DNA from: Thermomicrobiales bacterium
Lineage (GTDB): Bacteria > Chloroflexota > Chloroflexia > Thermomicrobiales > UBA6265
Length of the DNA stretch: 64,000 bases
Reading direction: 5' to 3'
Assembly: GCA_034431475.1 (NCBI GenBank)
Contig: DAOUDE010000108.1
Coordinates: 48,882-112,881 of the forward strand
In this document: positions 22,606-24,180 of the stretch, one piece after another
Layout of the letters: every line of letters starts with the position of its first letter
Position numbering within the stretch: position 1 is the stretch's first letter
The notes under the pieces: model-generated
Told to the model about the DNA's origin: nothing
Databases searched by the model: none
Seen by the model: only the letters and a program-made list of their open reading frames with translations
Made by a program: the position numbers and the translations under genes

Positions 22606-24180
22606 ATGGACGACACAGCTTTCGACGCCCTGACCCGCCGCCACGTCGGCCTCGCGGCAGGCGGCATCCTCGCGTCACTCCTCGGTCTCTTCACCCAGGA
22701 CGCAGCGGAAGCTGACAAGAAGAAGCGCCGCCGTCGCCGCAAACGCCGCGAAAAGCGCCGCCGCCGGCGTGATCGCAACCGACCTTGCCAGGGTGCAGCC
22801 TGCGGCAATCAACGCCCAAACATCGTCCTCATCAACGTCGATGACATGCGGGAGAGCGATTACCTCGCGCTCACGCGCACCCGTGCCCTCCTGCAGCAGC
22901 AGGGCGCCAGCTATCCCAACTACTTCCTGGCCACACCCCTGTGTGGCCCCTCACGCGCCAGCCTCTTCCGGGGCCAGTACGCCCACAACCACGGCGTGCT
23001 GAAGAACAACGGCGCGAACGGCGGCTGGAACGCGTATCACAACACCGGCGTCGACCAGGACACGGTGGCCACCTGGCTGCAAGCAGCCCAGTACCGTACC
23101 GCCCATATCGGCAAGCACATCAATGGCTACCGGGCCAGCAACCGCGCAGTCGGACCCGGCTGGAGCGAGTGGATCGTGCCAGTGCCGGTCAATTTTTTCG
23201 ACTACGACCTGAATGTGAACGGCACGCTGGAGCCACACGGCAGCGCGGCCAGGGACTACCTGACCGACGTGATGGCCACGAAAGCCGAAGCCTTCATCGC
23301 GTCCACGCCAACACCAACGCCACTCTTCCTCTACTTTGCACCCAAGGCCCCGCACGGCCCGGCCACGCCCGCGCCCCGGCACGCAGGGGCCTTCGCCGGT
23401 CATCAACTGGACGAGTCAGGCTCCTTCAATGAGGCCGACATGTCCGACAAGCCGGCCTACATGCAGCGCCCGCTCCTCACCGCCGACCAGATTCGCGATC
23501 TGGAGCGGCGAGAACGCGACCGCCTGGAGAGCCTCCTCTCAGTCGATGAGGCGATCGAGCGCATCGTCAACGCCCTGCAGGCGGCAAACCGGCTCCAGAA
23601 CACCTACATCTTCTTTGTTACCGACAATGGCTACCTGCTGGGCCAGCACCGTCACAGCGGCAAGTCGGTGCCGTACGAGGAAGCCATCCGCATGTCCATG
23701 CTGGTGCGTGGCCCCGGCATCGCCGCTGGCTCCACCAACGACGCCATGGTCGCCAACATCGACCTGGCCCCAACCTTCGCCGCACTCACGGGCGCCGCCA
23801 CGCCTGGCTTTGTGGATGGCCGCTCCCTCGTCAGCACCCTGCGCGGCGCTGACACAGGCCGCGCCGCACTGCTCATCGAGATCTTCAGTGGGGCAGAGGA
23901 CGATCCGGAAGAAGCGGACGATGTGCTGCCGGAGGCGCGCGTCGCCGCTCCCTCGCGCCGTCGCGCCATTCGCACCGCCGATTGGCTCTACGGCGAATAC
24001 GGCAATCCTGCCTCGGAGTTCGAACTCTACGACCTGCATGCCGACCCCGCGCAACTGCAGAGCCAGCACGAGAATCCGGCACTGGCCGCGACCATGGCCG
24101 GCCTCTCCGCCTGGCTGGGCACCCTGGTCAACTGCACGGGCAACGCCTGCCGCAGCGCGGAGAACCATCCGCCGGCGTAG
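22606..24180 (+). CDS. Cys-type sulfatase (paralogue 2) with polybasic N-terminal tract
   Basis: GGGAGG Shine-Dalgarno. Leader MDDTAFDALTRRHVGLAAGG. 19 of 22 residues are K/R (nt 22717-22782). IVLINVDDMRESDY; ATPLCGPSRASLFRGQYAHNHG; VTDNGYLLGQHR. Alignable with paralogue 1 along its whole length. Confidence 0.85.
   Translation: MDDTAFDALTRRHVGLAAGGILASLLGLFTQDAAEADKKKRRRRRKRREKRRRRRDRNRPCQGAACGNQRPNIVLINVDDMRESDYLALTRTRALLQQQGASYPNYFLATPLCGPSRASLFRGQYAHNHGVLKNNGANGGWNAYHNTGVDQDTVATWLQAAQYRTAHIGKHINGYRASNRAVGPGWSEWIVPVPVNFFDYDLNVNGTLEPHGSAARDYLTDVMATKAEAFIASTPTPTPLFLYFAPKAPHGPATPAPRHAGAFAGHQLDESGSFNEADMSDKPAYMQRPLLTADQIRDLERRERDRLESLLSVDEAIERIVNALQAANRLQNTYIFFVTDNGYLLGQHRHSGKSVPYEEAIRMSMLVRGPGIAAGSTNDAMVANIDLAPTFAALTGAATPGFVDGRSLVSTLRGADTGRAALLIEIFSGAEDDPEEADDVLPEARVAAPSRRRAIRTADWLYGEYGNPASEFELYDLHADPAQLQSQHENPALAATMAGLSAWLGTLVNCTGNACRSAENHPPA

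Follow-up and report, generated by a model that had tools for sequence, protein, structure and literature searches.

The window, a 64-kb stretch of Thermomicrobiales DNA in which positions are counted from the first letter, contains two sulfatase genes with a gene for a small Cys-rich protein between them, and an M1 peptidase gene further along. The features of the locus are as follows.

20363..21919, plus strand: sulfatase 1 gene, 518 aa, GTG start, with an RR leader (VDIDAIRTWSRRQLGGAAGG) and without a K/R tract
22052..22435, plus strand: small Cys-rich protein gene, 127 aa, TTG start at 22052, SD GAGGGGG 5 nt 5' of the start
22052..22174, plus strand: small-protein leader, residues 1-41, with an acidic n-region, T10-R11-R12, a Gly/Ala/Leu h-region and NEEDAEA
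22178..22249, plus strand: small-protein polybasic tract, residues 43-66, RRNRRNKNRKNKGRKNRRRDRCRK, 16/24 K/R
22241..22432, plus strand: Cys-rich cargo domain, residues 64-127, with 12 invariant Cys in two C-C-CC-C-C units (alignment A4)
22460..22495, plus strand: intrinsic-terminator-like hairpin between the small gene and sulfatase 2, an 11-bp stem with 10 GC pairs followed by TTTTGTGTT
22606..24180, plus strand: sulfatase 2 gene, 524 aa, ATG start, SD GGGAGG 5 nt 5' of the start
22606..22713, plus strand: sulfatase 2 leader, residues 1-36, with MDDTAFDAL, T10-R11-R12, the h-region HVGLAAGGILASLLGLFTQ and DAAEA
22717..22782, plus strand: sulfatase 2 polybasic tract, residues 38-59, 19/22 K/R, net charge about +16
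22786..22803, plus strand: C61-x4-C66 mini-loop (CQGAAC) joining the tract to the catalytic domain of sulfatase 2
22816..24177, plus strand: sulfatase catalytic domain and SGSH_C region, residues 71-524 (PF00884, E=3.5e-43; PF16347)

Both the small gene and sulfatase 2 open with xDDTxFDxxTRR-GLAAGG, followed by a weakly hydrophobic stretch, an acidic AEA site and a run of Lys and Arg, an arrangement hereafter called the cassette. The N-terminus of sulfatase 2 reads MDDTAFDALTRRHVGLAAGGILASLLGLFTQDAAEAD, then the tract KKKRRRRRKRREKRRRRRDRNR, then PCQGAACG, with the Pfam Sulfatase domain beginning at residue 71; R11-R12 is encoded at 22636-22641 and AEA occupies positions -3 to -1. The small protein has the layout LDDTQFDTWTRRRFGLAAGG...EDAEAA followed directly by its own tract, with R11-R12 at 22082-22087, AEA likewise at -3 to -1, and a tract that extends into the first conserved Cys (C64). 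A first-pass annotation of this DNA had described such a module of leader, AEA site and K/R run on both proteins, and the counts of 19/22 and 16/24 K/R bear it out. The hairpin at 22460..22495 suggests that the two genes are separate transcription units.

Sulfatase 2 has the attributes of a type I (S1) formylglycine sulfatase, namely the fold, the C/S-x-P-x-R motif, present here in its Cys-type form as C113-G-P-S-R117 (22942-22956), and the N-terminal metal-binding DD; D79, D80, C113, P115, S116 and R117 are invariant in the sulfatase alignment A5. Its nearest solved structure is an N-acetylglucosamine-6-sulfatase (5G2V, E=1.5e-36). In the AF2 model, confidence is high from residue 70 (pLDDT >90), the tract is drawn as an isolated helix apart from the catalytic fold (pLDDT 57-76), and the leader falls below 50, which fits a signal peptide or a disordered segment. 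Approximately 30 sulfatase orthologues of 56-90% identity retain both leader and tract, the latter with a net charge of +12 to +18, and in some orthologues (P0026, P0027, L136) poly-His stands in place of K/R; His tracts of this kind would carry positive charge only if the wall space is acidified. The CQGAAC mini-loop is common to many orthologues, including variants whose leader lacks a tract, and farther homologues carry ordinary signal peptides directly 5' of the catalytic domain.

The small protein is identical to a database entry (P0270, ‘hypothetical protein U0Z70_22230, Thermomicrobiales bacterium’), and no Pfam or NCBIfam family covers it. We found 57 homologues, and the basic tract is kept in all 45 that were aligned; these tracts drift in length and sequence, with K/R/N interchange and indels, and retain their charge. 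T10, R11, R12 and G15 are invariant in the same alignment (A4). The Cys-rich domain is modelled with good confidence (AF2 pLDDT 81-94), with the tract at low confidence outside it, and each of its two units has the six Cys in C-C-CC-C-C spacing that is expected of a knottin. Foldseek placed knottins at the top of its list, below significance: the predicted fold comes closest to those of squash trypsin inhibitors, spider toxins and a conotoxin, with target-normalised TM scores of 0.65-0.74 over 25-29 residues, and the match to Pfam Toxin_12 is likewise sub-threshold (E=0.14).

Both proteins appear to be correctly delimited at their N-termini. NCBI gene calls (GCA_046328355.1, JAXLWS010000006.1) yield the same 127-aa and 524-aa products, and each start has its SD site. 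The next in-frame ATG of sulfatase 2 encodes M81; because this falls after the invariant D79/D80 of the catalytic domain, a start downstream of the tract is excluded. The concern that the true starts might lie beyond the basic runs, raised when the module was first noticed, is thus answered by the SD sites, the gene calls and the position of M81.

Sulfatase 1 was said to carry a Tat-like leader without a basic run, and this holds: its leader (VDIDAIRTWSRRQLGGAAGG) is related to the cassette leader, has a single basic residue in the c-region and is followed by no K/R tract. Its orthologues P0036, P0039 and P0040 begin at the identical residue, and the protein serves as an internal control. The third basic patch that had been pointed out, in the M1 peptidase, exists (KKPRAKKAKKHGKRRHHRSGASARTIKRLGKR, 40982-41077), but it is internal (residues 272-303), has no leader and is unrelated in position to the other two.

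The K/R runs are not a product of chance. A six-frame scan of the 64 kb recovered these two runs and the two leader motifs as the only ones. The binomial expectation of 19/22 K/R is 6e-8 per 22-residue window, and 30 block shuffles reached at most 13/22 and never 14 or more, against 24 such windows in the real sequence. Tandem Repeats Finder reported no repeat in the sulfatase 2 tract and a weak 15-bp, 2.2-copy repeat in the small gene; on these results, together with the block shuffles, a simple-repeat artefact was rejected. The suspicion that the tract might be a mere AAG/CGC repeat, absent from orthologues, likewise does not survive its conservation in them. Crude motif scans of the 64-kb window for FGE, anSME, TatA and TatC gave nothing useful.

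The cassette extends far beyond this locus and is portable across cargo. A search with a cassette profile returned 304 protein clusters at E<=1e-3 and 84 at E<=1e-10; among the best 150 of the 304 clusters the match begins at residue 1 in nearly all, the called start lying further upstream in ~12. The cargo is nearly always a small protein with 12-36 Cys in knottin-like spacing, and Cys counts across the family are often multiples of six (12, 18, 24, 30, 36). Other cargo comprises several unrelated Cys-rich patterns, sulfatases and a 225-aa domain with 2 Cys; some Cys-rich cargo carries a C-terminal Peptidase_S74 chaperone, and RTX repeats are also among the cargo types. No Pfam or NCBIfam model covers the cassette, and a literature search found no earlier description of it.

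Scans at the DNA level used a degenerate pattern that encodes FDxWTRRxFG only, and no tract. Of 50 leader-bearing matches, 49 lie in 14 Chloroflexota (Thermomicrobiales-type) MAGs, with up to 18 per genome, and the cassette is in this sense restricted to a single taxon; a K/R run is present in 43 of the 50. In a metagenome scan with the same pattern, 40/62 had a strong K/R run, and many others had Lys/His/Gly-rich cationic runs. Because viral contigs scanned with this pattern gave one chance match and no cassette, we do not regard the cassette as phage-borne.

These distributions speak against the earlier proposal that the module was shared between the two genes by recombination or duplication within the locus. 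The two copies have ~65-70% DNA identity in the leader and are unalignable in the tract, and on this basis a recent copy between the neighbouring genes was rejected. Related MAGs, with up to 18 copies per genome, contain the small gene with or without either sulfatase alongside; the small gene and sulfatase 2 are adjacent also in L041, and sulfatase 2 is absent beside the small gene in L018, L046 and L064. Given 304 clusters, multi-copy genomes and variable neighbours, the cassette is a lineage-wide element and not a local event. The suggestion that the tract captures sulfated substrates does not hold as a general role, the usual cargo being a small Cys-rich protein and not a sulfatase.

The leader has the geometry of a signal peptide. 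In statistics computed on 211-234 proteins, the arginine pair occupies residues 11-12 and is followed by the tract after a median of 26 residues (IQR 26-28); the h-region has a median length of 19 aa and a Kyte-Doolittle mean of 1.3. Ala is found at position -1 in 58% of the proteins and at -3 in 43%, and 74% have some small residue at -1. Small -1/-3 residues close the c-region, as expected of a signal peptidase I site. A (-3,-1) site lies exactly at the tract border in 131/211 proteins, compared with an average of 83 and a maximum of 104 in shuffles; this agrees with the earlier proposal that cleavage after AEA leaves a polycationic N-terminus, and a mature protein of that kind is the most likely product.

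Several properties of the leader point to Tat. T10, R11 and R12 do not vary among the 23 sequences of A1 or the 45 of A4, whereas the third basic position does; the residue at +2 after RR is F, V or L, so that the arginine pair is of the kind found in Tat signals. The h-region is less hydrophobic than Sec signals. For the best 17-residue window of each leader, the median apparent insertion energy is +2.2 kcal/mol, and it is below zero in only 1% of 234 leaders, compared with -0.8 to -2.1 kcal/mol for Sec-type signals and TM helices of the same 64-kb window; the energies are sums over the scale of Hessa 2005, with position dependence ignored. The leaders do not show the favourable (negative) energy expected of a signal anchor or TM helix. 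The motif differs from S-R-R-x-F-L-K at its last two positions (G-L, not L-K), and neither Pfam TAT_signal nor NCBIfam TIGR01409 matched the leaders tested at E<=10. Counting against Tat are the acidic c-region, which is atypical for Tat signals, and the disulfide-rich cargo, which is not typical folded Tat cargo; the positive-inside rule alone would have the tract favour the opposite topology. A survey counted 15 tatC genes across 14 Chloroflexi genomes (PMC3827258). Basic residues in the c-region or mature N-terminus are Sec-avoidance signals (PMC7317946), and weak hydrophobicity combined with several positive charges C-terminal of a helix leads to release from Sec and handover to Tat (PMC5449189).

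We therefore propose, as a reading to which we give an even chance, that the shared N-terminus is an export cassette of Thermomicrobiales-type Chloroflexota in which a Tat-type leader is cleaved off and the remaining polycationic tail binds polyanions. The first part would be a Tat-type signal peptide, consisting of an acidic n-region (MDxxxFDxW), the invariant T-R-R with a hydrophobic residue after it, an h-region of the Gly/Ala/Leu type, ~19 residues long and too weakly hydrophobic to be inserted stably by Sec, and an acidic c-region that closes with A-x-A. The second is the polycationic tract of 8-27 residues, ~70% K/R and net +5 to +17, beginning at, or 1-3 residues from, the predicted signal-peptidase cut. 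Sec would be unable to thread a precursor with a dense positive block behind a weak h-region, an extreme form of the known Sec-avoidance or Sec-release principle; Tat would then export it, and signal peptidase I would cleave after AEA. The mature cargo, whether a sulfatase or a tandem knottin-like Cys-rich protein, would keep a flexible polycationic N-terminal tail, which may bind polyanions outside the membrane (the cell's own anionic wall, lipid head groups, matrix polymers or a target surface), so that the cargo is retained or targeted. What the analysis establishes is the architecture, its conservation, its use with different types of cargo, its confinement to one taxon and its resemblance in geometry to a signal peptide; from these we infer the Tat route, the cleavage and the electrostatic tethering, and tethering to the envelope is a plausible outcome.

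A role for the tract after export may be expected on three counts. Because sulfatase 1, with the same leader type, has one basic c-region residue, the 15-19 charges exceed what routing would need. Tract length also differs with the cargo: the sulfatases, which are acidic (net about -20), carry the longer tracts (about +15), and the near-neutral small proteins the shorter ones (about +9). The poly-His variants point the same way. As a general role, neutralisation of acidic cargo by the tract was rejected: it fits the sulfatases (-13 to -32) but not the small proteins (about +1). A bolder extension, which we consider speculative and rather unlikely, is that the cassette is a secretion-and-targeting code of the Thermomicrobiales, in which a Tat-type leader with an obligatory polycation marks a large, fast-diversifying knottin-like arsenal, and the K/R tail, more than a passive tether, would act as a warhead or delivery device onto or into anionic target cells (antimicrobial or toxin-like effectors). 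In this picture each genome holds tens of such proteins, their genes often arrayed in tandem, and some of the proteins carry a phage-type S74 trimerisation chaperone. Should this be true, it would also show that a translocase can move a +15 charge block against the membrane potential.

Other explanations of the tract can be weighed against cleavage, Tat export and a retained polycationic tail. It might be a routing device only, an exaggerated signal for Sec avoidance and Tat commitment or a translocase spacer with no role once outside. The tract is indeed tightly coupled to the RR leader, 26-28 residues from RR, never follows Sec-type signals within the 64-kb window, and sits where basic residues behind a weak h-region block Sec and pass a protein to Tat (PMC7317946, PMC5449189). 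Yet sulfatase 1 and other cargo have the same leader type without a tract, in the cited work one or two charges were enough to avoid Sec, tracts grow longer with the charge of their cargo, and poly-His variants would block Sec poorly at cytoplasmic pH; we consider a pure routing role unlikely. An uncleaved membrane anchor would have to be either N-in/C-out, with the tract on the outer leaflet, or, following the positive-inside rule, N-out/C-in, with tract and cargo cytoplasmic. The uncharged stretch of ~19 residues could cross a bilayer, and a +10 to +17 block C-terminal of it is placed cytoplasmic by that rule (PMC5449189). This seems quite improbable in view of the positive apparent insertion energy of 99% of leaders, the enrichment of small -1/-3 residues exactly at the tract border, and cargo that is extracytoplasmic in kind (sulfatases whose relatives have cleavable signals, knottin-like domains with 12-36 Cys, S74 fibre chaperones and RTX repeats).

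It is decidedly unlikely that the tract is a propeptide, removed after export by a basic-residue protease to mature the Cys-rich peptides in the manner of animal knottins, which are made as signal-pro-toxin precursors. The tract of the main Cys-rich family does end right at the first Cys (K-K-R-C-[RK]-K-L-G), the cargo is knottin-like, and an acidic patch followed by a basic run looks like a pro-region; the tract is also found, however, on a 467-aa sulfatase that needs no such maturation, no single processing site is conserved, the basic run already includes the first Cys, and the loci examined contain no linked protease gene. The idea of a module copied from one neighbouring gene to the other, which captures polyanionic sulfated substrates when on the sulfatase, draws on the adjacency of the small gene and sulfatase 2 here and in L041, and on the resemblance of sulfatase 2 to glycan 6-O-sulfatases; polybasic peptides bind sulfated glycans. 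We consider it very improbable, given the low DNA identity of the two copies, the 304 mostly non-sulfatase clusters, the small gene standing without sulfatase 2 in L018, L046 and L064, and the age of the tract, which persists in the sulfatase clade to 56% identity. A functionless, neutral low-complexity expansion through AAG/CGC slippage would explain why tract length and sequence vary among orthologues, and the one weak 15-bp repeat in the small gene, but its probability is next to negligible: the tract is cationic in ~30 sulfatase orthologues and ~200 other proteins, it sits at a fixed place with respect to RR, its codons are mixed, and Lys is its commonest residue (38%) despite 66% GC.

Export rules learned mainly in E. 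coli and Bacillus hold that dense positive charge just past the signal peptide blocks secretion. In the present lineage as a whole, hundreds of different exported-type proteins have +5 to +17 charges at precisely this point, and the charges have survived deep divergence. Should Tat be the route, the cassette would represent Sec avoidance in an extreme natural form and offer a convenient test of the charge capacity of Tat; if the tail tethers, it would provide simple surface retention without sortase or lipid anchor, in a poorly known and largely uncultured phylum. The analysis also brings to light a large family of tandem knottin-like proteins in bacteria that lacks annotation, all of them ‘hypothetical’ and covered by no Pfam or NCBIfam model, which could be mined for stable peptide scaffolds or antimicrobials, and the cassette is a usable secretome marker for annotating Thermomicrobiales MAGs.

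Among known systems, the closest to the cassette leader are canonical Tat signals with a Sec-avoidance residue, such as those of E. coli TorA and SufI (PMC7317946), with which it has in common the n/h/c layout, an invariant Ser/Thr-preceded arginine pair with a hydrophobic residue two positions on, a long, weakly hydrophobic Gly/Ala-rich h-region, an AxA site and positive charge at the junction of c-region and mature protein. It differs in its motif (T-R-R-x-[FVL]-G-L rather than S-R-R-x-F-L-K, so that the Pfam and TIGRFAM Tat models miss it), in its conserved acidic n-region (MDxxxFDxW) and acidic c-region, and in its charge, which amounts to +5 to +17 over 8-27 residues on the mature side of the predicted cut, whereas canonical Tat signals have one or two such residues. 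The Tat-dependent final TM helix of actinobacterial Rieske and dual Sec-Tat proteins (Tooke et al. 2017, PMC5449189) likewise combines an RR motif, a helix of low hydrophobicity and positive charges on its C-terminal side, and experiments on such helices showed that this combination leads to Sec release and handover to Tat (PMC5449189). Those helices are uncleaved, lie within polytopic cofactor proteins and carry a handful of charges; the cassette, in contrast, is N-terminal, apparently cleavable and far more charged, and its cargo is soluble and cofactor-less.

For the cargo, the Bacteroides thetaiotaomicron N-acetylglucosamine-6-sulfatase (PDB 5G2V), an S1 formylglycine sulfatase, resembles sulfatase 2 in its Sulfatase and SGSH_C regions and its C-x-P-x-R site but lacks a polybasic tract at its N-terminus. 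The precursors of spider and cone-snail toxins and of plant knottins (Pfam Toxin_12, Conotoxin) are small and secreted, contain C-C-CC-C-C units and have the same order of signal, spacer and Cys-rich domain as the cassette proteins, the sequence and fold matches between them being below significance. The cassette proteins, unlike these precursors, are bacterial, have tandem units (12-36 Cys) and an RR leader, and their spacer is polybasic, whereas the toxin precursors have a pro-region with a single dibasic site. As for the tract, Lys-rich tails with which bacterial surface proteins bind polyanions, for example the C-terminal Lys/Ala/Pro repeats of mycobacterial HBHA, and the Cardin-Weintraub heparin-binding motifs are, like it, disordered cationic low-complexity segments on a folded domain, and their charge should let them bind sulfated glycans, nucleic acids or anionic wall polymers. 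They are C-terminal or internal, less dense and uncoupled from a signal peptide, in contrast to the cassette tract.

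Sulfatase 2 and the small cysteine-rich protein encoded ahead of it share a Tat-like twin-arginine leader and a run of Lys and Arg, as the first-pass annotation had proposed and as the sequence, a six-frame scan and shuffled controls confirm. Together these elements form a conserved and portable N-terminal cassette restricted to one taxon; its geometry is that of a cleavable signal peptide with a polycation behind it, and its cargo is of extracytoplasmic type. The genes concerned are:

15003-17657, minus strand, cyanophycin synthetase gene
18154-19130, plus strand, ParS-like antitoxin/RES toxin pair, between the cyanophycin synthetase and cyanophycinase genes
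19135-20013, minus strand, cyanophycinase/Peptidase_S51 gene
20363-21919, plus strand, sulfatase 1 (GTG start, 518 aa), co-oriented with the next two
22052-22435, plus strand, small Cys-rich protein (TTG start, 127 aa)
22606-24180, plus strand, sulfatase 2 (ATG start, 524 aa)
40169-41794, plus strand, M1 peptidase gene

Sulfatase 2 begins MDDTAFDALTRRHVGLAAGGILASLLGLFTQDAAEA-D-KKKRRRRRKRREKRRRRRDRNR-PCQGAACG, with its Pfam Sulfatase domain starting at residue 71, and the small protein reads LDDTQFDTWTRRRFGLAAGGAAATMLGLLGAVGLNEEDAEA-A-RRNRRNKNRKNKGRKNRRRDRCRK followed by another 11 cysteines; the leader of sulfatase 1, VDIDAIRTWSRRQLGGAAGG, is recognisably related and has no basic run. The six-frame scan of all 64 kb (65.9% G+C) found only these two K/R runs and two leader motifs. 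A run with 19 K/R in 22 residues has a binomial expectation of 6e-8, and 24 stop-free 22-aa windows with at least 14 K/R were observed versus 0 in 30 block shuffles. True starts downstream of the tract are contradicted by sulfatase 2, in which no start codon separates the tract from the invariant D79-D80 of the catalytic domain; a Shine-Dalgarno sequence lies 5 nt ahead of the start in both cassette genes, and NCBI independently calls products of the same lengths, 518, 127 and 524 aa, on the 322.5-kb source contig (JAXLWS010000006.1, Thermomicrobiales MAG GCA_046328355.1). Nor is the tract an unconserved local repeat, since it is kept in orthologues and both copies have mixed codons and a non-tandem make-up.

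Almost all sulfatase 2 homologues at 56-90% identity (P0002-P0035, several named Thermomicrobiales by NCBI) keep the whole cassette, in the order MDxxxFDxWTRRxFGLxxGG, h-region, D/E-rich A-x-A and 20-25 K/R-rich residues, often with an N/Q/P-rich linker carrying a CxGxxC loop before the catalytic domain; two orthologues (P0021, P0028) have a Cys-rich basic insert. Because the sulfatase-1 clade (P0036-P0040) bears a tract-less leader, and in homologues at 45-50% identity an ordinary short signal peptide directly adjoins the catalytic domain, the family appears to be exported, and the leader appears to predate a tract maintained in one sulfatase clade across deep divergence. All 57 homologues of the small protein are 'hypothetical' and lack Pfam domains; they share 12 invariant Cys and a tract that is always basic and variable in length and sequence. 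Poly-His (up to HHHHHHHHHH), His-Lys runs or Lys/His/Gly repeats (KGHGNKGKHKGNGK...) replace the K/R tract in two sulfatase 2 orthologues (P0026, P0027) and in five further family members (L136, L110, L084, L095, L162), and this swap suggests that selection acts on a low-complexity spacer that is cationic, or dependent on pH or metal, rather than on K/R as such.

A profile built from 23 cassettes had 304 matching clusters at E<=1e-3, of which 84 reach E<=1e-10, among 1.84 billion representative proteins. The best 150 of the 304 are almost all proteins of 40-235 aa, include only one sulfatase representative, and nearly all match from residue 1 (about 12 called proteins start farther upstream); their K/R run usually continues directly into ...R-C-[RK]-K-L-G-x-x-C, and their Cys counts are often 12, 18, 24, 30 or 36. 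The profile's K/R columns bias it towards tract-bearing proteins; a degenerate DNA pattern for FDxWTRRxFG, blind to the tract, corrects for this and was run against one genome per GTDB species (185,579 genomes). Fifty of its 82 distinct matches are followed by a leader-type hydrophobic stretch; 49 of these 50 come from 14 Chloroflexota MAGs, whose labels read Thermomicrobiales, Sphaerobacteraceae, 'Chloroflexia' or Limnocylindria, and a K/R run is present in 43 of the 50. The remaining matches, in unrelated phyla, are short, out of context and at chance expectation. Per-genome counts, at least 18 in one MAG, are lower bounds, as only the exact subset is caught; sulfatase 2 itself, for example, escapes the pattern with FDALTRRHVG. 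Real leaders make up 62 of the 100 distinct metagenome matches, 40 with a strong K/R run and the others mostly with weaker Lys/His/Gly-rich cationic runs, a few with none; scanned viral contigs gave no cassette. By these searches the cassette is lineage-wide rather than local. Cassette genes also form tandem arrays, with four paralogues within 2.3 kb at L059 5779-7674 (MAG MFD02840.bin.2.193) and further arrays at L019, L014, L043 and L072; such a pattern is what secreted effector or toxin families that diversify fast typically show. Pfam and NCBIfam hold no model for the cassette or the Cys-rich family, and a targeted literature search found no description of either.

The first-pass annotation had attributed the shared module to recombination or duplication within the locus. 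The leader DNA of the two copies is only ~65-70% identical and the tracts cannot be aligned; a near-perfect intrinsic terminator (22460-22495; 11-bp stem, 10 GC pairs, T-run) follows the small gene directly, so that each cassette gene probably has its own transcript; and in related MAGs the small gene stays by the cyanophycinase gene with sulfatase 1 or sulfatase 2 present or absent. Local recombination is thus not the explanation, and the sulfatase-2 clade bears a cassette that usually heads members of the Cys-rich family. At least five loci in related MAGs (L018, L032, L041, L046, L064) have the small gene beside or near a cyanophycinase gene, with sulfatase 1 between the two in L032. Directly 3' of sulfatase 2, 24430-29126 holds an AAA_25 (RepA-like) ATPase gene and a type I restriction HsdR gene and looks like a mobile or defence island flanking the locus; the 64-kb window has no tRNA genes.

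A further K/R/H-rich patch reported at 40982-41077 in the M1 peptidase is real (KKPRAKKAKKHGKRRHHRSGASARTIKRLGKR), but it is not a third cassette: it occupies residues 272-303, between the Peptidase_M1_N and catalytic domains, of a protein with an ordinary hydrophobic signal peptide. A beta-lactamase-family protein (60819-62168, minus strand; PF00144, E=1.6e-39) has a tract-less RR leader of related type, MSGFDLRHSRRAVLGGVSAGVAG; the 'FD...[ST]RR..LGG' style looks like the local flavour of Tat-like leader.

In AF2 models the leader scores pLDDT <50 in both proteins (residues 1-33 in sulfatase 2) and the tract is a lone helix (pLDDT ~50-55 in the small protein, 57-76 in sulfatase 2), so the cassette is predicted to be an appendage outside both folds. 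The catalytic domain of sulfatase 2 exceeds pLDDT 90 from residue 70, its nearest solved relative being 5G2V, a Bacteroides N-acetylglucosamine-6-sulfatase. The Cys-rich part of the small protein (64-127) scores 81-94 and has no significant Foldseek match in the PDB; the best is the Dkk4 N-terminal region (E=0.043), and ranks 2-20, none significant, are nearly all knottins (squash trypsin inhibitors, spider toxins, conotoxin; TM 0.65-0.74 normalised to target, over 25-29 residues). Pfam Toxin_12 falls just under threshold on a relative. Many cassette-bearing Cys-rich proteins in relatives end in Peptidase_S74, 'chaperone of endosialidase' (E=1.4e-11; L014 4841-5470, L019 2862-3551, L056, L059, L060, L070, P0231, P0318), an intramolecular, self-cleaving trimerisation chaperone characteristic of phage tail fibres; this suggests that such proteins form trimeric surface fibres, rich in Cys and polycationic at the N-terminal end. 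Other cargo includes different Cys patterns and a 225-aa domain with 2 Cys; RTX and Stig1-like repeats occur on tract-less leaders. One type of cassette-bearing Cys-rich protein (P0145, 220 aa, 33 Cys) has a weak, sub-threshold match (E=6.5e-10) to NCBIfam NF041328, 'MXAN_6577-like cysteine-rich protein', hinting at links to Cys-rich secreted proteins of myxobacteria.

Across 211-234 proteins, the twin arginines are residues 11-12 of an invariant T-R-R, the third basic residue being variable, and the first Arg precedes the first K/R of the tract by a median of 26 residues (IQR 26-28). The uncharged stretch has a median of 19 aa and a mean Kyte-Doolittle value of 1.3; its best 17-residue window has a median apparent insertion energy of +2.2 kcal/mol (1% <0), versus -0.8 to -2.1 kcal/mol for the Sec-type signals and TM helix of the window, both approximate, with position dependence ignored. 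Position -1 is Ala in 58% and small in 74%, -3 is Ala in 43%, and -4 and -5 are Asp/Glu in ~43%; a (-3,-1) site falls exactly at the tract boundary in 131 of 211 (shuffles: mean 83, maximum 104). Tracts span 8-27 aa (median 16), are 69% K+R, with Lys the commonest residue despite 66% G+C, and carry +5 to +17 (median +10). Charge is ~+15, on longer tracts, for acidic sulfatases (cargo ~-20) versus ~+9 for near-neutral small proteins; in the sulfatase 2 clade (P0001-P0035) a tract of +12 to +18 nearly cancels a catalytic part of -13 to -32.

We propose that these proteins would be exported by Tat, that signal peptidase would cleave after AxA to make the tract the new N-terminus, and that this tail may act after export, most simply by electrostatic binding to polyanions such as the cell's own wall or lipids, matrix, DNA, sulfated glycans or a target cell. 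The Tat route is suggested by an invariant RR with a preceding Thr and, two residues on, a hydrophobic position, a long, weak h-region, a total length of ~37-41 residues and a positive block at the C-terminal end; the first three are Tat-signal hallmarks (PMC7317946), and tat genes are general among sequenced Chloroflexi (PMC3827258). Against it, curated Tat profiles do not detect the leader and the c-region is acidic. Disulfide-rich cargo is also unusual for Tat. We are confident that the export cassette is real and conserved, and consider a Tat-type leader cleaved before the tract fairly probable; the full chain from Tat export through cleavage to tether is evenly poised, and the tail's role as a tether is tentative.

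A dense positive block C-terminal of a weakly hydrophobic helix experimentally aborts Sec insertion and hands the protein to Tat (PMC5449189), and the tract could serve such routing only. We find this unlikely: sulfatase 1, with the same leader type, manages with a single basic c-region residue; tracts are longer on acidic sulfatases; poly-His substitutes would be charged only in an acidified extracellular space; and in the S74-bearing relatives a trimeric fibre would logically be attached by its N-terminus, all of which point to a role after export. A propeptide removed at basic residues is less likely again. An uncleaved membrane anchor, in either orientation, would use the uncharged stretch and must face its positive insertion energy and the (-3,-1) site at the tract boundary, and we judge it improbable. 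The first-pass proposal of a local copy with substrate capture is very improbable given the divergence of the two copies, while neutral low-complexity expansion, for which the variable tract length might speak, is scarcely credible beside a tract that is always basic.

The cassette shows the four defining features of Tat signals that were tested, but neither the profile nor the full consensus recognises it, and we thus name the leader Tat-like rather than a proven Tat-signal member. In operation it would resemble a Tat signal whose Sec-avoidance block is extreme and joined to a polycationic tail.
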